This document shows positions 5,195 to 46,696 of a stretch of 50,064 bases of DNA, piece by piece; within the stretch, counting starts at the first letter, position 1; each line of letters opens with the position of its first letter. Where the stretch lies: positions 1-50,064 of the IMG/VR virus record IMGVR_UViG_3300044217_003764. One strand, written 5' to 3'. The notes below the pieces were generated by a model. That model did not search any database. It saw only the letters and a program-made list of their open reading frames with translations, and was not told the DNA's origin. Origin of the DNA: a virus. Taxonomy: Duplodnaviria > Caudoviricetes. The position numbers and the translations under genes were made by a program.

Positions 5195-5689
5195 ATGTCC
5201 GACACAGATGTCGAAATCCACTCAGACGATGAAATCGTCGATGTTGTCCTTCGCAGTCCCTTCGTTACGAAAGACGCGCGATATCTCAAGACCAACACGA
5301 AACTGCGTGTGACGCGCCGGCAGATGAACGAGTGCACCGCCATGAAGCTCGATCAGCCTGAGCTGAAGCCGGAGCCGATCGACCTGACCAAGACGGACCG
5401 CATCGATATCGTCTCGGTGCCAACGCTAGCGCCACAGTCCCGCCCTGAGCCTGTCAGCCTTGTCGATTCGAAGAAGACCCCCAAGCTGACGGGCCACGGC
5501 AGCGGCAAGGTCGCGCCAGCCACGGTCGAAGAGGTGGTCGCCGCCGCCAAAGCGATCGATCTCGAAACCATTCCGGACCAACTGACCGCGAAAGGCTACA
5601 TCAAGCAAGCCTATCTGGAAACGGTGACGGGCAAGACCATCGATCAGAAGGTCTACTTTGCCTACATGAACCAGGCCAAAAGCGACTGA
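5195..5689 (+). CDS. Hypothetical protein
   Basis: GGAG SD; 164-aa ORF in the structural module. Confidence 0.7.
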   Translation: MSDTDVEIHSDDEIVDVVLRSPFVTKDARYLKTNTKLRVTRRQMNECTAMKLDQPELKPEPIDLTKTDRIDIVSVPTLAPQSRPEPVSLVDSKKTPKLTGHGSGKVAPATVEEVVAAAKAIDLETIPDQLTAKGYIKQAYLETVTGKTIDQKVYFAYMNQAKSD

Positions 5690-8900: not shown

Positions 8901-10639
8901 TGCCAGACGGCTTGCCAGACATCAGTGGAAACGCTCTCACGCCGGCCGGAACCATCCGGTCGGCGGGTCAGCATGAGGCCCGGGTTGCATCGGTATTCGA
9001 CCGGGTGGCCAACGTCGCCAACCAGATTGCAGTCCTGACCGGGCAGGCTGATGCGAAAAAGGGTGAAAAGGAAGCCCTGCGCGACTTCAACGAGCGCGCG
9101 CAGTTCGCGGACGATATTGGCGCTCCCGGCCTTGGCAATTTCACCAAGCGAGAACGGGCGCTCGGTCTTCAGACGGCTGGGGACCGGGCATACAACAACA
9201 TGCTCGAGACCCTTTACCTGCAGCGCACCAAGGGGTCGATCGAACAGGAGGCCGCGCGCCTTCGTGCTGACCCGAACACGTTTGGCAATGTCGAGCAGTT
9301 CGACGTCCAGATGGAGGAAGTGAAGAAGAGTATCGGTGGCAATACCGATCCGGACTTCGCCGATGAAGTCTTCTTCATGATGGACACAGTGCAGCAGGAC
9401 GTTCGCGGCAAGGTCGCGGCCGATCGTCAGGCGGCAGACATGAAGGAAGCCCGCGAGGCGATGGATGCCACGATCCAGGGCATGTCCGACGATCTCGATG
9501 CAATCCTGCGCAGCCGGGGGCAGGAGGCACTGGCTGATCCAGAGGTGAAGCGGCTCTCGAATGACCTCCAGCGTCAGATGCAAATCAAGGCTGACAATCC
9601 GGTCTATGGGTATTCGGAAGAGCAGCGCGCTTTGGATGCCGATGTGATTGCATCGCGGCTCGAGGTGGCCACCTTGTTGCCGGATATCGAGAACGTGTTC
9701 GAAGAGCAGGGATATGCTGCAGCGCTCGAGACGGCCGACACATACGCCGATGGCCTGCAGAGAACCACGGCAGAGCGCGAGCGGACCCGGAATGCGCTGC
9801 GCCAGGAAATCAACCTGCTCCAACAGAATCGTTCGGCCCACCTGGCTGAAGTCACGGCAGAAGAGGAGCGCCAGAAAAAGGTGCGCGGGGATCTGGCCGA
9901 AGTCTATGACAAGCGCGCGATCGACATCATCTTCGACCCGACTGCGACCAAGCAGGAAAAGCACACCGCTGTTCTGGCCGCGCGGCCGTATGTGACCGAA
10001 ACCCGGTACGGCACACTGCTCGGAAAGGTGTTCGATGACAGTGCCGGCAAGGGCGTCGGTGACAGTGAATTCACACAATACCGGATCATGGCCCGCAACA
10101 ACGCGCTCGATGAAGATCAGGTGCTGGAGCTCGTGCAGTTCACAGACAGCCAGCGCAACACACTTCTGGCCGATATCGACAAGACCGCAAGCAAGGTCCG
10201 CAAGCCCGGTGTCGATCGCATTGAGGCCGCATTCAAGGATGGTGGGATGCTGGACACCAGCGCCGAGACTGCCCAGCAGCGAGCAACGCAGAAGGTGCAG
10301 GCCATCGAGCAACTGGATGATTGGTTCGAAGGTCTCGAGCACACGCCGAATGCGCGTGAGGTGCAGGACCAGGTAGACGTCATTCTGTCCACGTCCGGCC
10401 GGGTGAATGCGTTGGTTGAGCGCTCGAGCTTCCTGTCGGTCGGCAGCTTTGGATCAGTACCCGGAGCGGAAGACATCGCTGACGCCAAGCGCCGGATCAA
10501 TGAGCGCTACAAGCAAATTCGCCCGAATGAGAATGATATGCGGGGTTTGTCCGCATACCAGGAACAGGAATTAGAGAGGCTTGCCGAAGAGCGCGCGCTT
10601 CTGAACCAGATTGAAGGGAGCATCAACAATGCCCGGTAA
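8900..10639 (+). CDS. Internal virion (ejection) protein
   Basis: Helical ~579 aa; TAATG coupling at 8900; synteny. Confidence 0.7.
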   Translation: MPDGLPDISGNALTPAGTIRSAGQHEARVASVFDRVANVANQIAVLTGQADAKKGEKEALRDFNERAQFADDIGAPGLGNFTKRERALGLQTAGDRAYNNMLETLYLQRTKGSIEQEAARLRADPNTFGNVEQFDVQMEEVKKSIGGNTDPDFADEVFFMMDTVQQDVRGKVAADRQAADMKEAREAMDATIQGMSDDLDAILRSRGQEALADPEVKRLSNDLQRQMQIKADNPVYGYSEEQRALDADVIASRLEVATLLPDIENVFEEQGYAAALETADTYADGLQRTTAERERTRNALRQEINLLQQNRSAHLAEVTAEEERQKKVRGDLAEVYDKRAIDIIFDPTATKQEKHTAVLAARPYVTETRYGTLLGKVFDDSAGKGVGDSEFTQYRIMARNNALDEDQVLELVQFTDSQRNTLLADIDKTASKVRKPGVDRIEAAFKDGGMLDTSAETAQQRATQKVQAIEQLDDWFEGLEHTPNAREVQDQVDVILSTSGRVNALVERSSFLSVGSFGSVPGAEDIADAKRRINERYKQIRPNENDMRGLSAYQEQELERLAEERALLNQIEGSINNAR

Positions 10640-13600
10640 CGCCGCCGACGCCGCCTATGAGGCCCGCCGCAAAGAACGCCTTCGTGGCATCATGTCCCAG
10701 ATGGACGGAGAAATTGCCGCAGAAGAGGCCGCGGCAGCGCCGGCGCCCGTGGCAGAAGACGAGGATCTGTGGAGCGAGCGCCCTGAGCGCGGCGACGTCC
10801 TGAAGAAGCGGGCCGAGACGATGGGCGTGTACGGCGCACTGAAGGCCATCAATGACGGTGGCGGAGATCCGACTGTGAGCTCGGCGGATGTCAACCGCGC
10901 CTTCATCAAGCAGAGCGGCCGCGAATTGCAGATGGCCGGGAAGAACATCGCGGACACGGTTCCAGCGATCGGCACGTCCTGGCAGAAGATGGGCTCGGAT
11001 CTGAATGCCTTCTATCTGGAGAACCCGGGATTGATCCCGCGTGTGCCGCAGGAATTCCGTGCACCGCAGGAAGTGATCGAAGACTTCATTCTGTCGAATG
11101 AGGTCTTTCGCGCAATTCCGGTGGTTGGCGACTCGTTCGGGCCTGCGTCCAAGGAAGAGCGCGAAGCCAAGATCGCCGAGAGCCGGGAAAAGTCGGCCGG
11201 CCTCGAAGAGAAAATGCGCGAGCAATTGCCGGAGGGCGAAAACGCAATCCAGCAGGGCGTGGTCGATACGACCCTGAACCTCGGAATGATGCTGCCATCG
11301 CTGGCCGCGTCTGTGGTCACCAAGAACCCGAATGTCGGCCTGGCCATGATGGGAACCCAGACAGGCGCCACGTCCTATGGGGATGCGCGCCGGGCCGGGG
11401 CTGACCCGACGAAGGCGTATCGCTACGGCATCATGATGGGAGCCGTGGAAGCGGCAACCGAGCGCCTGCCTCTGAAATATCTTGTGGGCGACATCGGCAA
11501 GAAAACACCCTTCCTCGAGACGCTGAAGAAGCAGTTGATCTCCGATGGCCTCGGCGAACAGGCGGCAACCCACATTCAGGACATGCTGACATGGGTAGAG
11601 CTCAACCCGGAGAAGACCTTCGCGGACTATATCGAAGAGCGCCCTGAAGCCATTCAGCGCACAGCGATTACCTCGGCCATGATGTCGCTGGTCATGACCG
11701 GCGGGCAACAGGGCATCAGCCAGCTTGGCGGCAAAGACGAGGCGCCAGCCCCGGAGAGCGAGGGCGGCGCAGGAGAGGTGGCAGAAGCCCCGGCACCCGA
11801 AGCCCCGGAAAATAGTGAAACACCCCCACAACCACAGCCAAATGAGGAAGATCAGGCCGAAACGAGCCCGGACCCGGACAAGCTGGCGGAAGTTGAGGCC
11901 ATTTCAGAGGTCATCGAGCGGGCAGAGCCAGCCCAGCAGCCGACCGCGCGAGAAGAATCGGATGCGTTCGTCGCCGAGTATGAGGCCGCGCTCGGCATCA
12001 CGCCGGAATTTGAAGATCTCGCCGAGTCGCAACCGGACCCGGGGGAGGGTGGACTTGGCCGGACATTCGAAAGCCTGGTCGAAGAGAACGCTGAACCACG
12101 TCCGGAGGCGACGTCCTTCCGCGACCAGTTTGGCACTGACCGTCCCGAAACCCCGATCGAGGCCAAGGCCATTGACGAGATCGAGGCGGCAACTCCGGAG
12201 GCGACGTCCTTCCGCAGCTATTTCGGTCGCAAGTCATTTGGCGGCGAAGGTCTGGAGTCTGCTCCCGAAGCCGCGACCGAGGATGTCGACACCACGCTGT
12301 TGAGCGATGATGAGGTTTCAGCGATCGCTGACAATGAGGTTCTGGCAACACCAGAGGCCGCTGACGCCGAGTCGATGCTCGAGATTGCAGAGCAGAATTA
12401 CGACGAGGTTCTGACCGACGATATTCTGACCGGGCTCGATGACCAGTTCGACATGCCGGCAGAAGAGGTCCGTGAGATCATGGACGGCGCGATCGAGGGC
12501 CAGGGCAGCACCAAGAAGTTCAACACGCTGATGAAGCGCGTGGACAAGGTGCGCCGGTCTGGCGTGAAGGCCGCGCGTGGGGACAAGCTCTCCGACTTCG
12601 ACAAGGAAATGAACGCTCGCCGTCGGCAGCTTCACAGAGTCGCCCTGAACACATTCGGCGAATGGTATCTCGAGCTCGCCAAGTCCGGCCGCGTCGGCTT
12701 TGCGTCCAATATGCAAGATGTTCTGCCCGGTGTTCCGGAAGATACGATGGCGATGGCGATGCCCGACGGCAAAGTTGTCATCAGCGACCGGATCGACCCG
12801 CGGGACTTTGAGGGGCTGTTTCTGCACGAGGTCGGTATTCATGCCGGACTGCAGGGCCTGATCGGCGCCAGTGGCAAAGAGGCCATTCTTGCTGAAGTCG
12901 ATCGACTCGCAGAGACGGGTGAGCGCTTCGCATCTGTTGCCCGTCAGTGGGCGCGCCAGATGGCTTTCCGCCCTGAACATGCTCGTGAGGAAACGTTGGC
13001 CTATCTGGTGCAGTTCGCTCCGGCCGCGCCTATTGTGACCCGCGCGATCGCATCCATGAAGGTTTGGATTGCCCGCCGGTTCCCCGGCCTGATCCCGCGC
13101 CTTGGCTGGAAGACGGCCGACTTCCGCCAACTGGCCCTGCTGTCCATCCGCAACCAGGCGTACAAGGCGCTGGAAATGCCGGTCAGCTTCCGGAGCGGAC
13201 TTGATAGCGACCACACGACGCTGGTACTGGACCGGCCGCACAAGTCGCGTCCGCCCATCCTCAATCCGAAATATCGCAAGTGGCCTTACAGCCAGTTTGG
13301 CGAGCCGGACCCGCTATTGCTGAACCAGACCCGGACAACCATCAATCTCGAGGATGTCGGCAACTTCCGCCAGAACGTCATCAACAACGAGGAAGTGCTG
13401 ACAGATCCGCACACGCTCGAGGCGATGTTTCAGGCGCATACGGACTTTGATGTTTTCGGATATCAGGATCTCATCGAGACCGTGAAGGCGTCCGATGACC
13501 CCGACGCCGCTTATGAGCTATCAGCGATGCTCGAGCCGCTGAAGGGAATGGATGCGCCGCTGGATATTCAGTATGCGCGCGGCGATGGCTTCCTGCGGCC

Positions 13601-16600
13601 GATTGGCTTCAATGATGATTTGGATCGCGGCACAGACACGTTCTTCGATCCGCGCCTGAACGAAGCGCAGAACAAGGCCGTGGAAATGGCCCGGAACAGA
13701 TTCTCGAATGCGGAAATCGCTGAAGAACTCGAATGGGATGGGCAGTCTGTTTCGAATGCCCTGTCTCGAGCGCGCAGCATGGGAATCGATGTGCCGCATG
13801 GATCTCGCGGTGCAGCCGGCATGGATCGCCTCTACATGGAGGAACTGATCGAGGTCGGCTTCAGCAACGAAGTCATTGCCCAGCGGACAGGCAAGACCCG
13901 CAATCACGTCAAGCAGGTTCGTCACCAGGTCAAGAATGGCGATATCAAACGCCTGCCGATGCAAACCGAAGTGAGGATGCAGCGCGCCAGGGATCTCGGC
14001 TGGAACACCGAGCGTCAAGTCTATCACGGCACGCCCGGTGAAATCGAAGGGGACGCGCTGCGCACGTCTCCGGACGGCCTGCTTGGCCGGGGCGTCTATC
14101 TCACGACGGCCACGGACCAGGCCAACACCTATGCGGGCGAAGACGGGGGCGCGGTCCTTCCTCTGTTCATCCGGGGTGAATTGGCCACGCTGGACCAACT
14201 CAAGGAAGCGCAGAAGCGCGCCGCTGCCGGCATCGGCAATGTCATGAATGCCCAGCGCAAGATCGCAGAACTGGCCCAGCACTATCTACAGCAGGCCGGC
14301 TATACGGGCGTTGAGGCTGGAACCACGATCGCGATGTTCGACTTCTCGGATGTGCGCAGCGTCAACGCCCGGTTCGACCCGATGAGGGACAGCCAGTCCG
14401 GGTTCATGCTCTCTCGCGGCGGTCAACAGGATGACATGTTCGACCCATACGCGGAGAAGGATGTCTATGTGAACCTGGCCCGCGTTGCTGGACCTGAAGA
14501 CTTCAAGGCCCTGATCCAGAAGCTGGCCAACGAAGCCCGGCCGGAAGTGAAGGAAAGAGTCGGTGGACGCCGCCCTCTGGCCCAGGTCGAACGCGAGGCA
14601 GCGAATGAGGAAGCCTTCAAGGCGCTCGCCAAACGCCGGCGCGGCAACATCCTGAACGACAAGGAAATGCTGGCCCTGCGCCAGCTTCGCGACTCTTCGG
14701 CGAACAAGATCCGGGAACTGGCGGAACTGTACCAGCAGAGCCCGTCACTCGCAGCCAAGGCTGCGCTTCACCGGGCGATGGTCCTTCATCGCACGATCCA
14801 GGCTGAAGTCTCAGGCGCCTCTGCCGATGCGGCGCGCTTGCTCGGCTCGCTGCGTATCCTGTCGAAAGACAGCACGACCCGCCGCATGGCGATGGAAGAT
14901 GCGTTGGCCCGCTGGGACAATGACGAGAATGTGGATGATCTGGTGAAACGCATCGCGCGCCTTGGCCCGAACCAGCAAGTCGAGCTCGATGATCTTGTTC
15001 GCGTCAGCATGAAGCAGGCGTGGACAGATCTCGGCGGGGCATGGATCAGGGCCATGTTCCTGTCCAACCCGAAGACGCACATCGTCAACGCCACTGGCAA
15101 CATGGCGGTCATGGCGATGGATGTGGGCTCAACCTATTTCGGGGGCGCGCTGACGATGGATCAGCAAATGATCTCCGAGGCCGGGGTGCGAGCATCTGAA
15201 CTGATGGACGCCTTCTACTACCAGATGCGCTATATGGCTCAGCACAGCCAGATGAACCCGACGAAGCCGAACGTCTCCCTGCGCTTTGACGATATGGGCG
15301 TGAATGGCAGGCAGGTTGACGCCGGTTCTGAACGCGCCCTCTCAGCCGGCCGCGTAAGCGCCCTGACGGGTGGGCTGGCCTCCAATCCGAGCGAAGACAG
15401 CATCGTCGGCCACACGATCAACCTGATCGGGTACGGCATCGCCGCTCCGTCGGAAGCGCTTGGTGTGGCGGATGACATGTTCAAGGGCATCAACTATCGC
15501 GTGGAAATGCGGGCGCTTGCCTTGCGCCAGGCGAACGCTGAAGCCCGCGACGGCCGGATCGACAAGGATCAGGTTTCAATGCGCATCGAAGAGCTTCTGG
15601 CAGATCCTTCGGATGAAATGATCCAGACGGCGCGTCATGCCGCACAGGAGCGGACATTCACCAACCGCCCGGGTCCGCTGACAATGGGTGTGCTGCGCTT
15701 CCGCAGGGCACTGAACAATGTGACAGGACTGCCGCTTGGGCACTTGCTGTTGCCGTTCGTCATCACACCTTCGAACATCTTCAGCTACACATTCCGTCAT
15801 CTGCCATCGGCCGCATTCTTCCCAGAGTGGCGGGCGGACTATGCTGCAGGAGGCCAGCGCCGCGCTCGCGCCGTCGGTCAGGTGGCGATGGGCACAAGCG
15901 TCATGATGCTGGGAATGGGCCTTGCCTCTGCCGGCATCATGAACGGCTCCGGCCCGGATGACATCGAGAAGAAGCGGGAACTGCAGGGCCTTGCCGGCGC
16001 TGGCTTCCAGCCCTTCGCTCTGAACATTGATGGTCACAGCTACACGATTGACCGTCTGGACCCCGTGTCTTCGATGCTGCTGATCGGCGCGGAGCTCAAT
16101 GAGATCTGGGCGAACAAGGGCTGGGACAGTGAGCCGGATGATGAACTCGGGGATCTGCTGACGAGCTCGGTTCTCAACATCGGCCGCATGATGCTGGACA
16201 AGTCCTACATGACCGGCCTGCGCGACTTTGTGAGGGCGCTGGAAGATCCGTACTATCGTGAGCGGTACTTCGCACGAACAGCCGCGGCCGTGACCACGCC
16301 AGCCCTGTCGGCCGAGATCCGCCGGCAAACGGACCCGTTCTGGCGGGAGGCAGACACAGCCATCGCCTCGATCAAGAATCGCATTCCCACGATGTCGGAG
16401 ACACTGCCGCAGGAGTATGACCTGTTCGGCCGTCCGAAGGTGTACCAGTCCGGTCATGGCGTTGTGTATGATTCGCTCATGCCGTTCATTGCCAAGAAGA
16501 TCGACCCGTCTCCGATCGATACCGAGTTGATGCGCCTGCACTACTTGCCATCCACAATGGACCGCTCCATCGGAGTGCCGGTCGGACCCCAAAGTATGCA

Positions 16601-16964
16601 AGTCTCGCTTCGAGAGCATCCGGAGATATACTCCCGCATGAGCCAGTTGATGGGGGGAGACAAGGATCTGAAGATCCCGTCCGTTCTTGATCGACTGAAT
16701 GAGCTCGTGGAATCGGATGGGTACGCAAAACTGATGGATGGCCCTGATCCGCTGCGAGGCTCAAAAGCCCGTGCGATCCAGGACGTCCTGGCAGATCATC
16801 GCGAGCGTGTGAGGCAGATCGTCGTCACCGAATATTGGGGCGACCTGCAGCAGCTCGGCCGCGAGGAACTGAAGCGGTCTCTGGCCCGCGCTGCAGAGCA
16901 GGAGGAAGAGCGTCAGTCTGAAATGGCTGCGGCACTTGCTGATGCTGTTGCGCAGGGCGAATAG
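10629..16964 (+). CDS. Large internal virion / polyvalent protein (metallopeptidase-like, HTH and ART-like domains)
   Basis: ~2,111 aa; HEVGIH at ~12825, tandem HTH-like segments ~13655-13935, YHGT...GRGVYLT at ~14020-14110. Confidence 0.8.
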   Translation: MPGNAADAAYEARRKERLRGIMSQMDGEIAAEEAAAAPAPVAEDEDLWSERPERGDVLKKRAETMGVYGALKAINDGGGDPTVSSADVNRAFIKQSGRELQMAGKNIADTVPAIGTSWQKMGSDLNAFYLENPGLIPRVPQEFRAPQEVIEDFILSNEVFRAIPVVGDSFGPASKEEREAKIAESREKSAGLEEKMREQLPEGENAIQQGVVDTTLNLGMMLPSLAASVVTKNPNVGLAMMGTQTGATSYGDARRAGADPTKAYRYGIMMGAVEAATERLPLKYLVGDIGKKTPFLETLKKQLISDGLGEQAATHIQDMLTWVELNPEKTFADYIEERPEAIQRTAITSAMMSLVMTGGQQGISQLGGKDEAPAPESEGGAGEVAEAPAPEAPENSETPPQPQPNEEDQAETSPDPDKLAEVEAISEVIERAEPAQQPTAREESDAFVAEYEAALGITPEFEDLAESQPDPGEGGLGRTFESLVEENAEPRPEATSFRDQFGTDRPETPIEAKAIDEIEAATPEATSFRSYFGRKSFGGEGLESAPEAATEDVDTTLLSDDEVSAIADNEVLATPEAADAESMLEIAEQNYDEVLTDDILTGLDDQFDMPAEEVREIMDGAIEGQGSTKKFNTLMKRVDKVRRSGVKAARGDKLSDFDKEMNARRRQLHRVALNTFGEWYLELAKSGRVGFASNMQDVLPGVPEDTMAMAMPDGKVVISDRIDPRDFEGLFLHEVGIHAGLQGLIGASGKEAILAEVDRLAETGERFASVARQWARQMAFRPEHAREETLAYLVQFAPAAPIVTRAIASMKVWIARRFPGLIPRLGWKTADFRQLALLSIRNQAYKALEMPVSFRSGLDSDHTTLVLDRPHKSRPPILNPKYRKWPYSQFGEPDPLLLNQTRTTINLEDVGNFRQNVINNEEVLTDPHTLEAMFQAHTDFDVFGYQDLIETVKASDDPDAAYELSAMLEPLKGMDAPLDIQYARGDGFLRPIGFNDDLDRGTDTFFDPRLNEAQNKAVEMARNRFSNAEIAEELEWDGQSVSNALSRARSMGIDVPHGSRGAAGMDRLYMEELIEVGFSNEVIAQRTGKTRNHVKQVRHQVKNGDIKRLPMQTEVRMQRARDLGWNTERQVYHGTPGEIEGDALRTSPDGLLGRGVYLTTATDQANTYAGEDGGAVLPLFIRGELATLDQLKEAQKRAAAGIGNVMNAQRKIAELAQHYLQQAGYTGVEAGTTIAMFDFSDVRSVNARFDPMRDSQSGFMLSRGGQQDDMFDPYAEKDVYVNLARVAGPEDFKALIQKLANEARPEVKERVGGRRPLAQVEREAANEEAFKALAKRRRGNILNDKEMLALRQLRDSSANKIRELAELYQQSPSLAAKAALHRAMVLHRTIQAEVSGASADAARLLGSLRILSKDSTTRRMAMEDALARWDNDENVDDLVKRIARLGPNQQVELDDLVRVSMKQAWTDLGGAWIRAMFLSNPKTHIVNATGNMAVMAMDVGSTYFGGALTMDQQMISEAGVRASELMDAFYYQMRYMAQHSQMNPTKPNVSLRFDDMGVNGRQVDAGSERALSAGRVSALTGGLASNPSEDSIVGHTINLIGYGIAAPSEALGVADDMFKGINYRVEMRALALRQANAEARDGRIDKDQVSMRIEELLADPSDEMIQTARHAAQERTFTNRPGPLTMGVLRFRRALNNVTGLPLGHLLLPFVITPSNIFSYTFRHLPSAAFFPEWRADYAAGGQRRARAVGQVAMGTSVMMLGMGLASAGIMNGSGPDDIEKKRELQGLAGAGFQPFALNIDGHSYTIDRLDPVSSMLLIGAELNEIWANKGWDSEPDDELGDLLTSSVLNIGRMMLDKSYMTGLRDFVRALEDPYYRERYFARTAAAVTTPALSAEIRRQTDPFWREADTAIASIKNRIPTMSETLPQEYDLFGRPKVYQSGHGVVYDSLMPFIAKKIDPSPIDTELMRLHYLPSTMDRSIGVPVGPQSMQVSLREHPEIYSRMSQLMGGDKDLKIPSVLDRLNELVESDGYAKLMDGPDPLRGSKARAIQDVLADHRERVRQIVVTEYWGDLQQLGREELKRSLARAAEQEEERQSEMAAALADAVAQGE

Positions 16965-31666: not shown

Positions 31667-31727
31667 CGGGTATCGATATTATCGAACACGGTCAACGGTA
31701 TATTTCGATAAAATCGATTTTCATCGA
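31667..31727 (-). promoter_or_regulatory. Leftward early promoter with repressor operators
   Basis: TTGACC-17-TACCCG on minus; TCGA-N5-TCGA palindromes at 31673 and 31705. Confidence 0.65.
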
Positions 31728-31740
31728 TATTTCAGGGGGG

Positions 31741-32391
31741 TCAGATGCGAGAAACTTTTGCAGCTACCCAGCCGATTACCGTCAGATCCTCGATATTCAC
31801 CTCATATGCGTGATGCTGAGGATTGTCAGAGCTGATTCGAATGCGTGGTGGTTTTGTGCCGGGGATCATTTCAAGCCGCTTGACCACAGCCAGGTCTTGC
31901 ATGGACAGAACATAGATGCCCGGTGTGGCAGGGTTGGATCTGCTCGTATCAATCAGCAGCTTGTCGCCTGACCTCAGCGTCGGCTCCATCGAATCGCCTG
32001 ACACTGTTAGGACTATGAAGGAGTGGGGGTTCATATCGAAAGCGGCAAAGAACCTGCGCGGCCAGGGCCAGTATCCGGCTGGCGCCTCCTGATCAATAAC
32101 CGCGCCACCACCGGCCGCAACAGTCAGAGAAAACTCAGGTATTTGAACCGTTTGAGGCAGGTCATCGGATGTCGTCACCGATCCGTTATCGCCTATGAGA
32201 TCTTCCGCATCGATCCCGAGTTCCCGGGCAATATCGTGCAGTTTGTCGATATCTGGCTGATGTTCGCCATTTTCGTATTCGGACAGGGAACTTTGCGAGA
32301 TATCGACTCGGGCAGCCAAGGTTTTCTGGCTCAGACCTGCGCTCTTGCGAGCGGTCCGAATGCGCCGCCCAAGCGCTTGAACATAAGGCAT
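31741..32391 (-). CDS. cI: CI-like repressor (XRE HTH plus S24 autopeptidase)
   Basis: SQKTLA..ISQSSLSEYENG HTH; AG cleavage site (VAAGGG); VSGDSMEP and VKRL catalytic motifs; alternative start 32406. Confidence 0.92.
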   Translation of the reverse strand: MPYVQALGRRIRTARKSAGLSQKTLAARVDISQSSLSEYENGEHQPDIDKLHDIARELGIDAEDLIGDNGSVTTSDDLPQTVQIPEFSLTVAAGGGAVIDQEAPAGYWPWPRRFFAAFDMNPHSFIVLTVSGDSMEPTLRSGDKLLIDTSRSNPATPGIYVLSMQDLAVVKRLEMIPGTKPPRIRISSDNPQHHAYEVNIEDLTVIGWVAAKVSRI

Positions 32392-32461
32392 TTTTTCAGT
32401 CTCCATTGTCTGCCTTACCTGTATACCAAAGGCGGTTAATATGTCCTAATCGGAATTGGCA

Positions 32462-32503
32462 TCGAAAATATCGATTGCATGTCGATATTATCGACGTTAT
32501 GCG
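32462..32503 (+). promoter_or_regulatory. Rightward (cro) promoter with two operators
   Basis: TCGAAAATATCGA at 32462 and TCGATATTATCGA at 32482; TTGCAT-17-TATGCG. Confidence 0.65.
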
Positions 32504-40871: not shown

Positions 40872-41126
40872 ATCAACGCTGCATGGGAAATTCTTGCGCG
40901 TGGCGCGTGTTTCACACTTTTCTATCGTGGGGTATCCCAGACCACGGATCGCGGCTGGTGACGATGCAGCGCAATTCTTCGGGCGGGGTGGTCACTCTGA
41001 TTTCCGGGATCTGTGCCAGCGTCTCGAGGTCAGCCGCCTCCCTTGCTCCAGGTCGGAAAGCGTACCGTAGGCGGCGGAGTATCCAGGGCAGGTTGCGCAT
41101 GTTGATGGTGTGCCTGACTTCCGGAC

Positions 41127-41165
41127 AAAAGAAAAGCCCCCGCCGGACGTATCCAGCGGGGGCTT
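41127..41165 (-). terminator. Intrinsic terminator ending the ribozyme operon
   Basis: AAGCCCCCGCTGGA-loop-TCCGGCGGGGGCTT followed by TTCTTTT on minus. Confidence 0.85.
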
Positions 41166-41182
41166 CCTTGTTGGGGACAAGC

Positions 41183-41356
41183 CTAGTTCGTTTTGGCCGG
41201 GCCTTGGGTAGCTGGCACGGGGTCCAGCGCGGCCAGGGCGGCGGTCGCAGATGTCACGCGGGCTTCTACCCGCTCGATGGCTTCGGCCAGACGCTTTGCT
41301 GATGTCTCCAGACGTTCAGCGGCTTTCTCTGCATCCACGAAATTCTTGTTAGCCAT
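41183..41356 (-). CDS. Operon gene 9, 57-aa helical protein
   Basis: CAATGGAGAC SD then ATG (MANKNFVD). Confidence 0.7.
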   Translation of the reverse strand: MANKNFVDAEKAAERLETSAKRLAEAIERVEARVTSATAALAALDPVPATQGPAKTN

Positions 41357-41380
41357 TGTCTTAGTCTCCATTGGTCTATC

Positions 41381-41433
41381 GGTGCACAGCGCACCCGATG
41401 CCCGCCACCCTTGCAGATGGCGGGACACGGCTA
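41381..41433 (-). ncRNA. Structured intergenic RNA motif B, copy 1 (not a hammerhead)
   Basis: TAG-CCGTG-T-[10-bp stem, GCAA loop]-CATCGG-GTGC-GCTGT-GCACC; covaries with copy 2. Confidence 0.6.
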
Positions 41434-41676
41434 GGCTGGTTCGGCTTCGGCCTCTTCCTCCTGCACTTCGGCCTCATAGTTGAAAACCGAAGCGACAAAG
41501 GTGGCTTCAACATTCTCTATCCCTTCAACGTCCGCCAGGTGGCGCAGGTCGCAGGCGAGATCTTTAATCCAGGTGTCGGTATCGTTTGCGTTCGGGCTGT
41601 CGCCGGTGTGGCTGATGTATGTTGCCAGCGCAGCACGAGCCCGTTCCGCACGATCCGCATTTGTCCAAGTGCCCAT
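41431..41676 (-). CDS. Operon gene 8, hypothetical
   Basis: CAATGGAGAC SD; TNADRAERARAAL...IKDLACDLRHLAD. Confidence 0.8.
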   Translation of the reverse strand: MGTWTNADRAERARAALATYISHTGDSPNANDTDTWIKDLACDLRHLADVEGIENVEATFVASVFNYEAEVQEEEAEAEPA

Positions 41677-41695
41677 TTGTGTCTCCATTGATTGT

Positions 41696-41752
41696 GGTGG
41701 AAAAGCCCACCGGATGGCCCTGCTGCCAGTTCAGCAACAGGGCGCACCGCTA
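41696..41752 (-). ncRNA. Structured intergenic RNA motif B, copy 2
   Basis: TAG-CGGTG-C-[12-bp stem]-CATCCG-GTGG-GCTTTT-CCACC. Confidence 0.6.
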
Positions 41753-42295
41753 GGCTCCGGTGCCGACGACTTGCTCGAGTCGGTCAGCTACCGCGTCCAG
41801 GTCTCCCCGATACGTTGGGAAGGCAACAACCTGCGCACCGTCGGTGGCGTAATTGATCACCTCGATGTTCAGGTCGGTTGGGAGTGCAGGGGATTCGGTT
41901 GCCGGTTCTGGCACCTTGTCGCCTGTCATGTAGAGCCACTTGGCCGTGACCGTGGCGAACACAAAGCCCGCCGCCGCCGCGTATTGCATCACGAGCGGGG
42001 TATTGTCCCCGAACAGCCAGAGCGCGCCGTAATGGTGCACCCAGACCTCAACGCAAGCCAGGAAGAAGGCAAAGATGGCCGTGGCCGTTGCTTTCCACTT
42101 GGCAAATCCCGCGCGCATCATGACCAGTTCCAGCGACTCCGAAAGGAGCCATGTGAACGTGGCCAGGAAGCCGAGCAGGACCGCGACACGATCCCAGCCA
42201 AATCCCGCGTGACGTAGGCCGATGGCTGCAATCACGTTGGACATGAGGACGATGGCCACCGGCGCAAGCGTGGTGGCGTTCTGTCTTAGGTTCAT
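41750..42295 (-). CDS. Operon gene 7, multi-pass membrane protein
   Basis: AATGGAGAC SD then MNLRQNA; about 4 hydrophobic segments. Confidence 0.8.
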   Translation of the reverse strand: MNLRQNATTLAPVAIVLMSNVIAAIGLRHAGFGWDRVAVLLGFLATFTWLLSESLELVMMRAGFAKWKATATAIFAFFLACVEVWVHHYGALWLFGDNTPLVMQYAAAAGFVFATVTAKWLYMTGDKVPEPATESPALPTDLNIEVINYATDGAQVVAFPTYRGDLDAVADRLEQVVGTGA

Positions 42296-42318
42296 GGTTG
42301 GTCTCCATTTATTGAGCT

Positions 42319-42372
42319 GTCTCATCAGTGGCGCTTGCTCAAGACGCCAGACCCGCCGGGGCGGGTTTCGAC
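42319..42372 (-). ncRNA. Type II hammerhead ribozyme HH1
   Basis: GUC-GAAA-CCCGCC/GGCGGG-UC^UGGCG/CGCCA-CUGAUGA-GAC; loop I UUGAGC pairs with 3' tail GCUCAA; cleavage 42350/42349. Confidence 0.93.
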
Positions 42373-42584
42373 TAGGTGTCATCCTCCTGTGTTGCGATTT
42401 TGATCAATTCACGCTGTGGGCTGAGTATTGCGCCCAGCAGCAGGAACGCGCCCAGCGTGGCGGCAATGAACACCGCCAGCCCTGCCAGCCCGTGAATCTC
42501 GAATGCAGCAGGCACCATAAGGCTGCAGCAAACAAGGATCACCAGGCCGGACAGAATGCCGGTCAGGCGCATGGGGTCGTTCAT
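42372..42584 (-). CDS. Operon gene 6, two-TM membrane protein
   Basis: CAATGGAGG SD; TAG stop overlaps HH1 stem II. Confidence 0.8.
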   Translation of the reverse strand: MNDPMRLTGILSGLVILVCCSLMVPAAFEIHGLAGLAVFIAATLGAFLLLGAILSPQRELIKIATQEDDT

Positions 42585-42617
42585 GCGGTATCCTCCATTG
42601 GTTTTAGGGTGTGGCCT

Positions 42618-42680
42618 GTCTCATCAGTAGCGAGGGGCCAATCTCGCCAGACCCCACCCCTTGCGGGGTAGGGTTTCGAC
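42618..42680 (-). ncRNA. Type II hammerhead ribozyme HH2
   Basis: Stem III ACCCUACCCC-GCAA-GGGGUGGGGU, C^, stem I UGGCGAG/CUCGCUA, CUGAUGA; pseudoknot UGGCC/GGCCA; cleavage 42650/42649. Confidence 0.95.
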
Positions 42681-43417
42681 TATGCCGCAACCGGCATTTT
42701 CTCCGGTTCTTGCACGATCGCCAGGGGCGCGCCCGTGGTGTCAAACCATTGCGGACGTCCAGAGTCCGCGCCGGCATTGGCACGCAAGGGCATAAGCACG
42801 CCGAACAGGTCGCGCTTACCGTCATCTGCAGGCCCGAACGTCACCAAAGCGGGATCATTCGGCCCCTCACTCCAGATGGAGATCGGGGCAGACCTTTGAT
42901 TGCAGAAGTCTGCAGCGGCCATTGTGAACGCCTTGAGGTAATTGGCGTCATACGTTGACGCCTGCGTCACGGGCTTGCAGTTGGAGAACCGGGGAACGAC
43001 TCGCGTGATGTCTGGAAAGTCTCCGTCTATCACCTCGAACATGTGAGCCCCAACGGGCAGGCGCCCTCCGTTTTCGTCCATGTCGAACAGGAAGCCCGGC
43101 GCGCAACATGACTCGGTATCATCGGGGTTCACCTCGATCATGCGAGTGCCAAGCGTTTTGCGGTCTTCCTTGAACACTGCGCCGGGCAGCTTGTGGCCTT
43201 CCGTTCGCAGGATCACGCCTTTACCGTCCGGCGCGAAGCCGTCCGGATCATAGGCAACAATGAGCTTGTGACCGTCCGTTGCCGCCAGCATCACACCGGG
43301 CTGATTGCCAGGCGCGCGGCTGACGTGAAGCCCATTCAGGTAATAGCGGCTCTTCTCTTTCGAGGTGAACCGATAAACCGTGCGGAAAAGGGCGGCACTA
43401 AAGCGATAATTGGTCAT
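42680..43417 (-). CDS. Operon gene 5, DNA polymerase III beta (sliding clamp)-like protein
   Basis: SRYYLNGL...AATDGHKL and IDGDFPDITRVVP match DnaN central-domain motifs; only 245 aa. Confidence 0.75.
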   Translation of the reverse strand: MTNYRFSAALFRTVYRFTSKEKSRYYLNGLHVSRAPGNQPGVMLAATDGHKLIVAYDPDGFAPDGKGVILRTEGHKLPGAVFKEDRKTLGTRMIEVNPDDTESCCAPGFLFDMDENGGRLPVGAHMFEVIDGDFPDITRVVPRFSNCKPVTQASTYDANYLKAFTMAAADFCNQRSAPISIWSEGPNDPALVTFGPADDGKRDLFGVLMPLRANAGADSGRPQWFDTTGAPLAIVQEPEKMPVAA

Positions 43418-43444
43418 TGTGTAGTCTCCATTGATTGTAACCCT

Positions 43445-43506
43445 GTCTCATCAGTGCAAGGCGGGTTAGGCCCTTGCAGACCCCGGCGCGCGGCCGGGGT
43501 TTCGAC
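43445..43506 (-). ncRNA. Type II hammerhead ribozyme HH3
   Basis: Stem III ACCCCGGC/GCCGGGGU, C^, stem I UGCAAGG/CCUUGCA, CUGAUGA; pseudoknot UAACCC/GGGUUA; cleavage 43479/43478. Confidence 0.95.
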
Positions 43507-43988
43507 TATCCGCGCTTTCGGCGCATCAGGTCAGTGAGGGAAACGACTTGCGGCGTCCCCTCCGGTTCGTCAAAGCCCCAAGGGGCATCGTCGTAACCAG
43601 GAAGTTTCGAGATCATGGATTTTCGCAGTTGCTGCACCCATTTTGCGGCCCAGCGTTCGTGATAATCGTTCGTTTCACATGCCTGATAGTCGTAACAATC
43701 GCAGGCTTTCAGCACGATCACGGGAGTCACGAAGGTTGGGTGAATCCGTCGAAAGGTGTAGCGTTCGATTGCTTCCATCCCTTCCAGGTCGTCACCTTGA
43801 TAGCGGAACAGCACCGAGCGCGTGTTTTCACGCAACAGGGCCTTTCCGAGAGCGTCCGCATCATCCGGGTCGTCACCTTTTGGCGCGCCGGGTAATGTGG
43901 AAAAATACGAGCTGGAAAAGTGGCGATCATCCATAGCTGCTGTTACCAGCAGGCTGATATGATCGTCGCTCACAACAAAAGCGGACAT
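43506..43988 (-). CDS. Operon gene 4, hypothetical phage protein
   Basis: CAATGGAGA SD then MSAFVVSDDHI; ENTRSV..RY and CYDYQACE motifs. Confidence 0.8.
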   Translation of the reverse strand: MSAFVVSDDHISLLVTAAMDDRHFSSSYFSTLPGAPKGDDPDDADALGKALLRENTRSVLFRYQGDDLEGMEAIERYTFRRIHPTFVTPVIVLKACDCYDYQACETNDYHERWAAKWVQQLRKSMISKLPGYDDAPWGFDEPEGTPQVVSLTDLMRRKRG

Positions 43989-44010
43989 AGGTATCTCCAT
44001 TGTTTAGCCT

Positions 44011-44071
44011 GTCTCATCAGACCGCAGGCGGCTAATCCTGCGATGACGCTCCGGTTAGGGAGCGTTTCGAC
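44011..44071 (-). ncRNA. Type II hammerhead ribozyme HH4
   Basis: Stem III ACGCUCC/GGAGCGU, C^, stem I AUCGCAGG/CCUGCGGU, CUGAUGA; pseudoknot UUAGCC/GGCUAA; cleavage 44045/44044. Confidence 0.95.
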
Positions 44072-44289
44072 TATTGGAAATCTTCGAGTCGGTGGCGTAC
44101 CGGCCGCCCATTGATCATGGGAACACCCCAGACCGTGGCCACACCGGCCGCATTGACCAGCGGTAGGTAAATAGGCGCAATTTCCCATGCAGCGCGCTGC
44201 TCTGACACGGTTTCCCATGTCCACCCTTTCGGCAGGTCGTAGCCAATAGGTGCAGCAAGGCACTCGCGTTCCGAGTTCGTGAGTTGCAT
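44071..44289 (-). CDS. Operon gene 3, 72-aa hypothetical
   Basis: CAATGGAGAC SD then MQLTNSERE; TAG overlaps HH4. Confidence 0.75.
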   Translation of the reverse strand: MQLTNSERECLAAPIGYDLPKGWTWETVSEQRAAWEIAPIYLPLVNAAGVATVWGVPMINGRPVRHRLEDFQ

Positions 44290-44317
44290 TTCAGTCTCCA
44301 TTGTATGGGTTTCGCGT

Positions 44318-44372
44318 GTCTCATCAGTGCCAGGCCGCGAGCCCTGACAGACGCCCCGGAGGGCGTTTCGAC
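44318..44372 (-). ncRNA. Type II hammerhead ribozyme HH5
   Basis: Stem III ACGCCC-UCCG-GGGCGU, C^, stem I UGUCAGG/CCUGGCA, CUGAUGA; pseudoknot UCGCG/CGCGA; cleavage 44350/44349. Confidence 0.95.
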
Positions 44373-44374
44373 TA

Positions 44375-44620
44375 TTAGATCGGTTCAAATTCCGCGCACG
44401 GTAGGCGTTCAAAGCCTGAAGGCTTGTGCACCTTCACAAACCGCCATCCGAGGCACTTCAGCACCGCGCGCATTTCATCGCAGGCTTGGTTGTCTCCCTC
44501 GGCGAAGTAGGCGAAGACTCTGCGCGTGACGCCCTCGCCAATCGTCCGAACCCCTCGGCAGGCGATGTCTTGCGCCTTAAATTGCGCCAGCGCTTCGCCC
44601 GGTTTAATTGGGTACGTCAT
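44375..44620 (-). CDS. Operon gene 2, 81-aa hypothetical
   Basis: CAATGGAGA SD then MTYPIKPG; ends TAA-TAG abutting HH5. Confidence 0.75.
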   Translation of the reverse strand: MTYPIKPGEALAQFKAQDIACRGVRTIGEGVTRRVFAYFAEGDNQACDEMRAVLKCLGWRFVKVHKPSGFERLPCAEFEPI

Positions 44621-44651
44621 TAGTTCAATCTCCATTGTAGGTAATTGGCCT

Positions 44652-44708
44652 GTCTCATCAGTGCAGCTAGGCCAGATGCTGCAGACCGGGCCGGAGCCCG
44701 GTTTCGAC
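44652..44708 (-). ncRNA. Type II hammerhead ribozyme HH6
   Basis: Stem III ACCGGGC-UCCG-GCCCGGU, C^, stem I UGCAGC/GCUGCA, CUGAUGA; pseudoknot UGGCC/GGCCA; cleavage 44684/44683. Confidence 0.95.
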
Positions 44709-44878
44709 TAATTGGCGTCTTTCCCGTCATGCCAGTGACCTTGAACCAGGTTCACGGATGCGATGAGGGCAACGGCGACAGCAAGTGCGAATAGAGTTGC
44801 GAAGGGCCACAGGGCCAGCAATGTAGCCATGACCTTCACGCCCATCAGCGCGGCGAGTGCCATAAGTGCAAAACGCAT
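44708..44878 (-). CDS. Operon gene 1, 56-aa hydrophobic peptide (absent from the ORF track)
   Basis: CAATGGAGA SD; MRFALMALAALMGVKVMATLLALWPFATLFALAVAVALIASVNLVQGHWHDGKDAN ends exactly at the TAG of HH6. Confidence 0.75.
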   Translation of the reverse strand: MRFALMALAALMGVKVMATLLALWPFATLFALAVAVALIASVNLVQGHWHDGKDAN

Positions 44879-44904
44879 AATTCAATCTCCATTGAGTGTG
44901 ATCT

Positions 44905-44993
44905 GTCTCTTCAGGCCCAGCGCGATCAATCACCAGGCGACACGGCACGCGCTTAGACATGGGCTGGAGAGGCCCGGCGCGCCGTGTTTCGAC
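44905..44993 (-). ncRNA. Type II hammerhead ribozyme HH7 (5' leader, extended stem III, CUGAAGA core)
   Basis: GUC-GAAA-CACGGC.../...GCCGUG-UC^GCCUGGUG/CGCUGGGC-CUGAAGA-GAC; pseudoknot UGAUC/GAUCA; cleavage 44939/44938. Confidence 0.9.
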
Positions 44994-45048
44994 TTGTCCC
45001 TAACGATGTCAAACAACATGAGCGGGGAAATGAGCCCGTCCCATGCAT

Positions 45049-45093
45049 TCGATAATATCGAACATATCGAGCAATTGCAATCGAAAATATCGA
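45049..45093 (-). promoter_or_regulatory. Promoter of the ribozyme operon overlapped by three operators
   Basis: TTGCAA(45080-45075)-17-TATTAT(45057-45052); TCGA-N5-TCGA at 45049, 45058 and 45081. Confidence 0.75.
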
Positions 45094-45127
45094 ACAAAAC
45101 CCCCAAGCGATAGACAAAACGCCATAG

Positions 45128-45160
45128 ATGCTAGAGACAATGCTAGAGACAACAGAGACA
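45128..45160. repeat. Tandem 12-bp repeat ATGCTAGAGACA x2 plus a partial copy
   Basis: Seen directly upstream of terS. Confidence 0.7.
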
Positions 45161-45196
45161 CAGGCGCGCCAGCGCCGCGCAGCGGGATCATGACCA

Positions 45197-45694
45197 ATGG
45201 CCGGTAAACCCCTTCAACGTGAAGCCAACGCCGCATTGCAGGCTCGTATCGAAGAACTCGAGAAAGAACTAAGCCAAGCCCTGCAACAACTCGCCATTCA
45301 CGCGCCCGGTGTGGTCCTGAATGCCATTCCGCCCGAAATGACAGAGTATTCAGCCGACTTGCCCGATAAGGTCGTGGCATTGGGGTCGCTCGGCATGACA
45401 CAGGCCATGATGATCGCTCAATTGGGTATTTCACGGGATACGTGGGATGAGTGGAAGGATACCTTCCCTGCACTCAAAGCCGCCGCCACTCGCGCGCGCA
45501 CGTTGGCACTGGCCAAGATGGATGAGTTACAGCAGCAGGCCGTGCATCGCAAAGACAACAAGTTCCCACACCAGGCCGCGAACGAATTCAGGAAAACCCT
45601 GCAGAATGAGGGGCTTAGTGAGGGTGGCGCTGGTGATGCGTCTAAGCTGGTGCGCGTTGTTAATGGTCTGACTGCTGATAAGGTATCAGGCTAA
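45197..45694 (+). CDS. Terminase small subunit (probable)
   Basis: EYSADL...LGISRDTWDEWKDTFPALKAA HTH typical of TerS; upstream of terL. Confidence 0.7.
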   Translation: MAGKPLQREANAALQARIEELEKELSQALQQLAIHAPGVVLNAIPPEMTEYSADLPDKVVALGSLGMTQAMMIAQLGISRDTWDEWKDTFPALKAAATRARTLALAKMDELQQQAVHRKDNKFPHQAANEFRKTLQNEGLSEGGAGDASKLVRVVNGLTADKVSG

Positions 45695-46444: not shown

Positions 46445-46519
46445 TGTGGGGTGGCGCAGAGGTAGCGCGTCGGTCTCATAATCCGAAGGTCGGAGGTTCG
46501 AATCCTCTCCCTGCACCCA
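46445..46519 (+). tRNA. tRNA with CAU anticodon (fMet-like sequence, atypical identity elements)
   Basis: Cloverleaf: TGTGGGG/CCCTGCA, D stem GCGC, loop CTCATAA, GGAGG-TTCGAAT-CCTCT, encoded CCA. Confidence 0.85.
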
Positions 46520-46604
46520 ATTTTCTTCTTGACGTATCGAAAATATCGGATCAATGTCGATATTGAGGTTGCGACCCCCCTCAGAAGCCTCAACACCCCC
46601 ACTG

Positions 46605-46640
46605 TGACCCCGGACGTTTTCGCGTCTGGGGTTATTTTTT
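46605..46640 (+). terminator. Intrinsic terminator
   Basis: GACCCCGGACG-loop-CGTCTGGGGTT followed by ATTTTTT. Confidence 0.7.
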
Positions 46641-46696
46641 GGGTTGCGCTTCCTGCAAATATCGACATTATCGAAATCCGAAAGGGAGACACGATC

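Follow-up and report, generated by a model that had tools for sequence, protein, structure and literature searches.

The virus record IMGVR_UViG_3300044217_003764 (Duplodnaviria; Caudoviricetes), here analysed over its full 50,064 bases and referred to as the window, is a complete record, and its gene content is that of a temperate marine phage. On its minus strand, seven units with the features of type II hammerhead ribozymes (HH1 to HH7) lie within 2.7 kb, each before one gene, with three genes following the last unit. By every sequence criterion available, the seven units are genuine type II hammerheads, and we consider it probable, at roughly 80%, that they are functional, self-cutting elements which split the transcript of a repressor-controlled, probably early operon. 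The units and genes A to I of this operon are, from 5' to 3' on the minus strand:

44905 to 44993, minus strand: HH1, the leader hammerhead; stem III of 11 bp, stem I of 8 bp, CUGAAGA, pseudoknot UGAUC/GAUCA, predicted cut 3' of C 44939
44708 to 44878, minus strand: gene A, 56 amino acids, hydrophobic
44644 to 44709, minus strand: HH2; Rfam score 41.9 bits, pseudoknot UGGCCU/AGGCCA, predicted cut 3' of 44684
44375 to 44620, minus strand: gene B, 81 amino acids
44310 to 44373, minus strand: HH3; Rfam score 45.9 bits, pseudoknot UCGCG/CGCGA, predicted cut 3' of 44350
44071 to 44289, minus strand: gene C, 72 amino acids
44003 to 44072, minus strand: HH4; Rfam score 44.8 bits, pseudoknot UUAGCC/GGCUAA, predicted cut 3' of 44045
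43506 to 43988, minus strand: gene D, 160 amino acids; 26% identity to an open reading frame (ORF) of viral locus L043 that lies directly 3' of a hammerhead
43437 to 43507, minus strand: HH5; Rfam score 38.8 bits, pseudoknot UAACCC/GGGUUA, predicted cut 3' of 43479
42680 to 43417, minus strand: gene E, 245 amino acids, short sliding-clamp (DnaN)-like protein
42610 to 42681, minus strand: HH6; Rfam score 43.7 bits, pseudoknot UGGCC/GGCCA, predicted cut 3' of 42650
42372 to 42584, minus strand: gene F, 70 amino acids, hydrophobic
42311 to 42373, minus strand: HH7; Rfam score 41.0 bits, pseudoknot UUGAGC/GCUCAA, predicted cut 3' of 42350
41750 to 42295, minus strand: gene G, 181 amino acids, membrane-like
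41431 to 41688, minus strand: gene H, 85 amino acids, phrog_3963 (function unknown); no hammerhead before the gene
41183 to 41428, minus strand: gene I, 81 amino acids; no hammerhead before the gene

On the minus strand of the window, the core boxes GTCGAAAC and CTGANGAGAC are confined to the seven units, with seven copies each; the plus strand has one copy of the former and none of the latter. All units carry the conserved residues C3 U4 G5 A6 N7 G8 A9 (as CUGA(U/A)GA), G12 A13 A14 and H17, the GAAA segment, a GUC/GAC stem II and the A15.1-U16.1 pair, with N7 being U in six units and A in HH1, while H17 is invariably C. The latter pair closes a stem III hairpin of 6-11 bp, and stem I forms a hairpin of 6-8 bp. 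Since loops close stems I and III and stem II is open, with pairs 10.1-11.1 and 1.1-2.1 present, the topology is that of type II in 7/7 units. In each of them, loop I is complementary to the unit's own 3' tail through 5-6 Watson-Crick pairs, which follow a constant A spacer and thus exceed four pairs throughout. This complementarity is specific: at least 5 bp are formed by all seven own loop/tail combinations versus 3/42 (7%) of the cross-unit combinations. A pseudoknot between loop I and the 3' tail has been reported for the majority of type II units (PMC3088659). The first-pass annotation of this DNA had placed the motif at these seven sites, with stems that vary yet pair, a loop I matching its own tail, and a hammerhead core with type II pseudoknot; each of these observations was confirmed, as the units parse in 7/7 cases and all loop/tail pairs it had listed were recovered.

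Comparison with two related phage contigs, L017 and L128, allowed us to follow the fold through sequence change. Fourteen units were aligned, of which the window contributed six, L017 seven, and L128 one. In this alignment, 99.1% of 218 cells are paired, compared with 70.1% in shuffled alignments, none of which (0/500) reached the observed value; sliding the pairing partners lowers the paired fraction to 27-43%. Changes on both sides are found in 11 of the 16 pairs, and the GUC/GAC stem II is invariant in all 14 units. Individual orthologues display the same behaviour. In the unit preceding gene E in L017 (at 9128), corresponding to HH5, loop I is unchanged and stem I differs by two double, compensatory substitutions, and the unit preceding gene G (at 11264), corresponding to HH7, again combines an identical loop I with compensatory stem I changes. 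In the leader unit it is the pseudoknot that covaries, from UGAUC/GAUCA in the window to UAAGC/GCUUA in L017. Motif identity, covariation, layout, and conservation in relatives are observations established by the sequences themselves.

A search with the Rfam model Hammerhead_II (RF02276; gathering threshold 37 bits), which had been proposed as a check, supported most of the array. A default whole-window gathering scan returned 5/7 units, and laxer filters recovered 6/7 at 38.8-45.9 bits, all above threshold; HH1 (44905-44993) gave no match to the model even at E<=10. HH1 is missed because its stem III loop contains a 26-nucleotide insert (44951-44976), consisting of a small hairpin followed by AUGUCUAA. 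This insert is kept in all three phages (L017 8139-8168; L128 5554-5589), and the leader-unit orthologues carrying it score 36.8 bits in L017 and 33.3 bits in L128.

The elements that would delimit the transcription unit are as follows:

45052 to 45080, minus strand: promoter-like site; -35 TTGCAA, 17-nucleotide spacer, -10 TATTAT, inferred start near 45045
45048 to 45094, no strand assigned: two palindromic operator-like sites; 45048-45062 is perfect (TTCGATAATATCGAA), the second is 45080-45094
41132 to 41167, minus strand: terminator-like hairpin (16 pairs) with a U run, 3' of gene I; operon end

From these elements we infer a minus-strand transcription unit reaching from about 45045 to about 41130. 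The promoter-like site is the single match of a sigma-70 scan between 40900 and 45300, where 1.7 matches are expected; it is credible because of its position and because operators lie over it, the palindromes overlapping the -10 element and abutting the -35 element. Palindromes of this 15-nucleotide type (TTCGATAwTATCGAA, up to three mismatches) have 10 matches in the window versus 0.46 expected and form pairs at four places, one of them over the operon promoter. One pair (at 31672 and 31704; 31672-31718) sits beside the 3' end of a CI-like repressor gene and another (at 32461 and 32481; 32461-32495) in a cI/cro-type intergenic region, and two weak matches are located at 3975 and 37715. Together, the palindromes look like the operator set of one repressor. 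Given that they are shared between the cI/cro region and the operon promoter, the repressor of the CI-like region probably also controls the hammerhead operon, which supports an early, repressor-controlled mode of expression. The first-pass annotation had spoken of an early operon with a leader and six consecutive junctions on one minus-strand transcript, ending in a three-gene 3' piece. The positions of the units uphold this arrangement, the 3' piece comprises G, H, and I and ends at the strong terminator-like hairpin, and the term early is plausible, as the palindrome overlapping the promoter-like site also flanks the CI-like repressor gene. Weak ctRNA-like matches in this region arise from the terminator hairpin.

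Directly 5' of the leader hammerhead lies an 18-nucleotide block (CTTTGACATCGTTAGGGA, 44996-45013), which contains TTGACA with no matching -10 element. This block is nearly identical in the three phages (L017 8104-8121; L128 about 5522-5540, with one change in L128), which are only 70-80% alike overall and differ from one another in their operator-like palindromes. It may serve as a binding site for a protein or as an element of the leader RNA. We also considered a leader peptide ahead of HH1 and dropped it, as the frame is not conserved in L128 by our reading of the alignment. Further upstream, between the operon promoter and the start of a TerS-like gene, 45128-45151 is a perfect tandem duplication of a 12-nucleotide unit (ATGCTAGAGACA on the plus strand); outside this site the window shows no enrichment of the repeat, TGTCTCTAGCAT (3 matches versus 2.4 expected).

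Hammerhead self-cleavage leaves a 5'-OH on the downstream product and a 2',3'-cyclic phosphate on the upstream one. In the processing that we propose, each unit would fold into the stem III and stem I hairpins, the 3-bp stem II, and the pseudoknot between loop I and tail, and cut itself after C17. The positions of C17 (44939, 44684, 44350, 44045, 43479, 42650, and 42350) are exactly the cut sites predicted in the first-pass annotation, and therefore its fragment lengths hold: cleavage would release a leader of about 105 nucleotides, six one-gene RNAs of 255, 334, 305, 566, 829, and 300 nucleotides for genes A to F, and a 3' remainder of about 1.2 kb with genes G, H, and I. Every released RNA would begin with a 5'-OH and the stem I hairpin plus pseudoknot, followed by ribosome-binding site and start codon, and would extend about 25-30 nucleotides beyond the stop codon, the stem III hairpin forming a 3' end that bears a 2',3'-cyclic phosphate. 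Each cistron would thereby receive standard, protected ends that could render its stability and translation independent of its neighbours, and insulation and stability are the likely benefit. The transcription unit, cleavage in vivo, the chemistry of the ends, and this benefit are what we infer from the observed array.

Several points weigh against this interpretation. The processing model rests on precedent rather than on data from this locus. The available RNA data are contigs of one metatranscriptome run, which are uninformative about ends and strand and might include DNA. The Rfam model fails to recognize HH1, and the promoter scan is, by number, not above chance. As to the likely benefit to the cistrons, a 2019 review calls for more work on the purpose of such ribozymes (PMC6765202).

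The first-pass annotation had also suggested a search for related phages with the same layout, and L017 provides one. Over 6.6 kb it shares about 70% identity with the window; it carries eight hammerheads at the same place and shares the order of TerS-like gene, array, and replication-side genes. Its proteins match those of genes E (50.6%), G (39.8%), and I (53%) with the order kept, the homologue of G being the ORF after the last hammerhead of L017, while nothing in L017 corresponds to genes A, B, C, D, F, and H. In L128, the leader unit is followed by one gene, one unit, and then E, within which the contig ends; two of the three genes that L017 holds between the leader unit and E are absent. 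The second unit of L128 looks like a hybrid of two L017 units, its stem III being similar to that of one and its stem I, tail, and ribosome-binding site to those of the other. The leader unit and gene E are therefore common to all three phages, and G and I to the window and L017, while the intervening genes differ.

Contigs of three DNA runs were compared with the stretch and reveal similar differences at close range. In a contig of run X10 (depth 142.7), position 42614 is joined to 43442, and the missing 827 bases amount to gene E plus one ribozyme-length unit; 14 letters at the joint are common to both sides and represent the 3' core shared by HH5 and HH6. Run X16 has joints from 43507 to 44629 and from 44073 to 44629, by which the 5' edges of HH5 and HH4, respectively, are connected to the ribosome-binding site that follows HH2. 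Among the 12 breakpoints listed for the DNA runs (five joint ends and seven loose ends), 11 fall inside hammerhead units and one lies a single base outside, the units making up about 16% of the stretch. The point differences among those listed respect the fold, with the tetraloop of HH2 changing from UCCG to GAAA and HH1 differing only at N7 (44910), the single core position at which any nucleotide is allowed. Runs X10 and X16 also share an alternative sequence from 42363 onward, inside the 5' core and stem III of HH7, which reads as a different stem III; therefore, a different hammerhead half circulates at this position, probably with a different downstream cassette.

Might the units, then, serve mainly as DNA-level joints of a modular gene array, with shared cores and ribosome-binding sites providing short homologies, and with cleavage being secondary and needed only for the independence of each newly arrived gene? 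We consider this possible and advance it tentatively; it extends the proposed processing of the transcript rather than excluding it. The joint of X10 in the shared 3' core of HH5 and HH6, the joints of X16, the clustering of 11/12 listed breakpoints inside units, the differences between phages with common flanking genes, and the hybrid-like unit of L128 all argue in its favour. In addition, among 48 sampled loci with close relatives, a homology breakpoint is found at 28/48 hammerhead junctions versus 177/733 junctions without a hammerhead (odds ratio 4.4, Fisher p 1.5e-6), a comparison that involves crude gene calls and non-independent pairs, which weakens it as support. This comparison replaced an earlier test (60/838 breakpoints inside a unit versus 1.0% of random positions), the null of which was too lenient. 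However, mosaic joints in phages generally coincide with gene boundaries, and the boundaries concerned here are all hammerheads; homology was seen directly at one joint only among the joints listed. Stem covariation is also strong, and therefore selection acts on the RNA fold and not merely on DNA repeats.

Both functions could be united in what may be called a plug-and-play array, an idea we offer as conjecture. Hammerheads would form the joints, their shared sequences would supply the homologies for gain, loss, or swap of single genes, and cleavage would give newcomers protected ends and autonomous expression. Each gene would carry stem I, core, pseudoknot tail, and ribosome-binding site at its front, and stop codon, 5' core, and stem III at its rear; invariant cores and the common stem II would let any two neighbours rebuild a working ribozyme, so that the cassette in DNA would all but coincide with the RNA that is released. 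In the literature searched, as far as its available text goes, no description of cassette exchange at hammerheads was found. Integron cassette arrays likewise consist of promoterless single-gene units behind one promoter, bounded by repeated structured sites. The likeness is one of analogy only, namely a variable row of single genes behind one promoter: unlike in integrons, there is no integron integrase by the array, the sole integrase-like gene being a phage integrase 17 kb away, nor an adjacent attC, though no search aimed at attC was made, and exchange here appears to use short homology in ribozyme cores.

The placement of the units relative to the reading frames bears on when cleavage might occur. 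An ORF of at least 40 codons terminates at the 5' edge of all six intergenic units, and in each of them its stop codon either shares bases with the start of stem II or directly adjoins it (UAG-UC in five; UAA and then UAG at HH3). At the other side, translation signals, namely a ribosome-binding site of GGAG type and a start codon, lie 24-35 nucleotides past the core in 7/7 units. The same layout is general among such units: in a control of 58 units from other viral contigs that are independent of the search pattern, an ORF ends at the 5' edge in 39 and a start codon with ribosome-binding site lies within 14-59 nucleotides in 49, with UAA at -5 in 14 units and UAG at -4 in eight. A terminating ribosome could hence cover the 5' strand of the ribozyme and make cleavage conditional, such that the state of translation tunes decay or cistron dosage. 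The stop codons of the six intergenic units, and of most units elsewhere, would suit this mechanism. However, tight packing alone could explain the overlap, and natural pseudoknotted type II units have been reported to be fast in vitro (>1.2 per min at 0.5 mM Mg2+; PMC3088659), and we judge conditional cleavage improbable.

The RNA contigs offer a weak hint in favour of cleavage. The run X20, from one study, contains gene E and two pieces in which a hammerhead plus ribosome-binding site runs into unrelated genes. Of the four pieces in this run, three terminate in the 3' half of a hammerhead, 12-28 nucleotides past the predicted cut, and none spans a cut site, bearing in mind that these are contigs of a single run which cannot show ends or strand and whose library may hold DNA. 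The contigs are consistent with cleavage and amount to no more than that hint, and portions of the stretch that no RNA contig covers are uninformative. They also bear on the proposal that cleavage is followed by ligation, in which one-gene RNAs would be circularized or spliced together via the common stem II. Stem II is invariant in 14/14 aligned units, and since stems I and III each fold on their own, a complete core could be rebuilt from the two ends of one RNA; circularization and splicing were indeed raised by Perreault et al. (PMC3088659). According to the available text of that study, neither spliced nor circular products were detected, the data not being shown there (PMC3088659), and no back-joined or skipped contig is present among the RNA matches listed, which is weak evidence from one run. 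Ligation is therefore very unlikely in our estimate.

That the array consists, wholly or in part, of inactive relics or of chance matches is hardly credible: while HH1 fails the Rfam model and some clustered hammerheads are possibly non-functional according to Perreault et al. (PMC3088659), the core residues are intact in 7/7 units, orthologues show compensatory change, a structural descriptor yields two matches in shuffled loci versus 194 in real ones, and the leader unit with its insert is conserved in three phages.

The descriptor just mentioned (core, closing pairs, and two hairpins of at least 4 bp) also served to place the array among others. A strict one-unit pattern matched at least 120 stretches of viral contigs, and 120 loci were selected by this single strict unit, meaning that counts from them are not estimates of prevalence. 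The descriptor detected 194 units in the 120 loci versus two in shuffled copies. The largest counts on a single strand were eight in L017, eight in L045, seven in L087, and six in L113, followed by four loci with four units and eleven with three. Rfam matches at E<=0.01 support eight units in L045, six each in L017 and L087, and five in L113, and L045 reaches nine when units found by the descriptor only are added to the Rfam matches. The seven-unit array is hence large and not exceptional, because arrays of six to nine units occur in 4/120 loci. One unit of the nine-unit array (L045 5023-5160, plus strand) was found by the descriptor only and not by Rfam; its stem III loop carries an insert of about 80 nucleotides, exceeding that of HH1.

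Processing of a phage transcript into single-gene RNAs has a well-known protein-based counterpart. The early polycistronic RNA of phage T7 is cut between genes by RNase III, which results in stable individual mRNAs with hairpin ends. There, a host protein enzyme acts on double-stranded sites, whereas here the RNA would cut itself and leave 5'-OH and 2',3'-cyclic phosphate ends. In synthetic insulators such as RiboJ, a self-cleaving hammerhead-type ribozyme plus hairpin trims upstream RNA and decouples the downstream gene. Unlike this engineered part, the array would represent natural use, repeated throughout an operon.

The array had been taken in the first-pass annotation as not previously characterized, a view that does not stand given both the six-to-nine-unit arrays in viral loci and the literature. 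Perreault et al. introduced natural type II hammerheads with the loop I/3'-tail pseudoknot in 2011 (PMC3088659), described clustered hammerheads flanking single genes in prophages, and suggested that the phage transcript is thereby processed into mRNAs of gene length (PMC3088659). The triple arrays of Clostridium scindens, Azorhizobium caulinodans, and Agrobacterium tumefaciens were reported to cleave in vitro, and that of A. tumefaciens also in Escherichia coli (PMC3088659). Like these arrays (the one in A. tumefaciens lying around ardA), the present one combines type II units and pseudoknots on one strand with variable single genes in temperate-phage DNA, as far as the published text describes them. 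Unlike the triples, it comprises seven units in one operon including a leader, with the proviso that published arrays may be larger than triples. Repressor-type operators, the layout of stop codon and ribosome-binding site, and cassette differences were not encountered in the available text of that paper. A 2019 review restates the processing idea and holds that the purpose of such ribozymes needs further work (PMC6765202). In Desulfovibrio vulgaris, three type II hammerheads were reported as active in vivo by cyPhyRNA-seq (PMC8782182). These belong to the same class and adjoin hypothetical and phage-like genes, two of the three being close together (PMC8782182); as described there, they occur singly or in pairs on a bacterial chromosome, unlike the operon-wide array presented here, which is known from its sequence.

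Within the phage genome, the hammerhead operon is flanked by a replication block and the TerS-like gene (45197-45694) and is encoded on the strand opposite to both. The virion genes are on the plus strand and include terminase, portal, major head, and tail genes as well as an internal-virion-like protein of 2117 amino acids. The ORF for the latter (10611-16964, plus strand) matches an internal virion protein family in its C-terminal part. Integrase, RecT, exonuclease, and the CI-like repressor (31741-32406) are encoded on the minus strand; the repressor region is followed by the rightward replication block with methyltransferase, DnaB-like helicase, O-like initiator, and DHH phosphoesterase. 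Integration, repression, recombination, replication, head, and tail functions, and hence the genes of a temperate phage, are thus all represented. A tRNA-Met gene (anticodon CAT; 46445-46519, plus strand) is located between the TerS-like and the large terminase genes, and a further pair of the repressor-type palindromes (at 46536 and 46661; 46536-46675) lies just past it.

Gene E is the only gene of the operon with a recognizable relationship. It has 47 relatives, many with PF02767 and some named DNA polymerase III beta in their source. Its family includes relatives of 190-260 amino acids, many of which have the central domain of DnaN, and some are encoded on large bacterial contigs; one cluster, with 97% identity, is located on a 410-kb contig. 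For genes A, B, C, D, F, G, and I, no match in Pfam, PHROGs, NCBIfam, or PADLOC exceeded the curated cut-offs, and a protein atlas search with gene D returned no match. The array stretch itself was found in 19 DNA runs from 10 studies, covering marine, vent, and hydrocarbon metagenomes. Comparison of 41100-45200 by blastn with 50,697 deposited phage records yielded no relatives; gene E alone, searched against viral contigs, the gene E alignment, searched against genome contigs, and the TerS-like protein, searched against viral and metagenome contigs, each returned no related loci. None of these blanks is evidence of rarity, as the collections searched may lack the nearest records. A conserved 17-mer 5' of the leader unit was tried as a route to the host and rejected: it occurs in 57 stretches of genome contigs, which are chance matches because none of them (0/57) contains a hammerhead by the descriptor. 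The sole hint at a host comes from alphaproteobacterial names on distant relatives of gene E.

Arrays of this kind are already known, and the locus mainly confirms and extends the published pattern. What our evidence adds is the repressor-type control, the conserved leader unit, the general stop/ribozyme/start layout, and evidence that hammerheads mark the joints of exchangeable cassettes. The role of many bacterial and phage hammerheads is still under study, and the 2019 review asks for more work on it (PMC6765202). The present operon is a dense candidate test system for this question, given its seven intact units, one repressor-controlled promoter, and conserved leader unit, together with two relatives that have the same array and different genes, and with natural single-cassette variants. 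If the cassette reading is true, it would link the ribozyme to the modularity of phage genomes, and nature would have its own equivalent of the ribozyme insulators that are built into synthetic operons.

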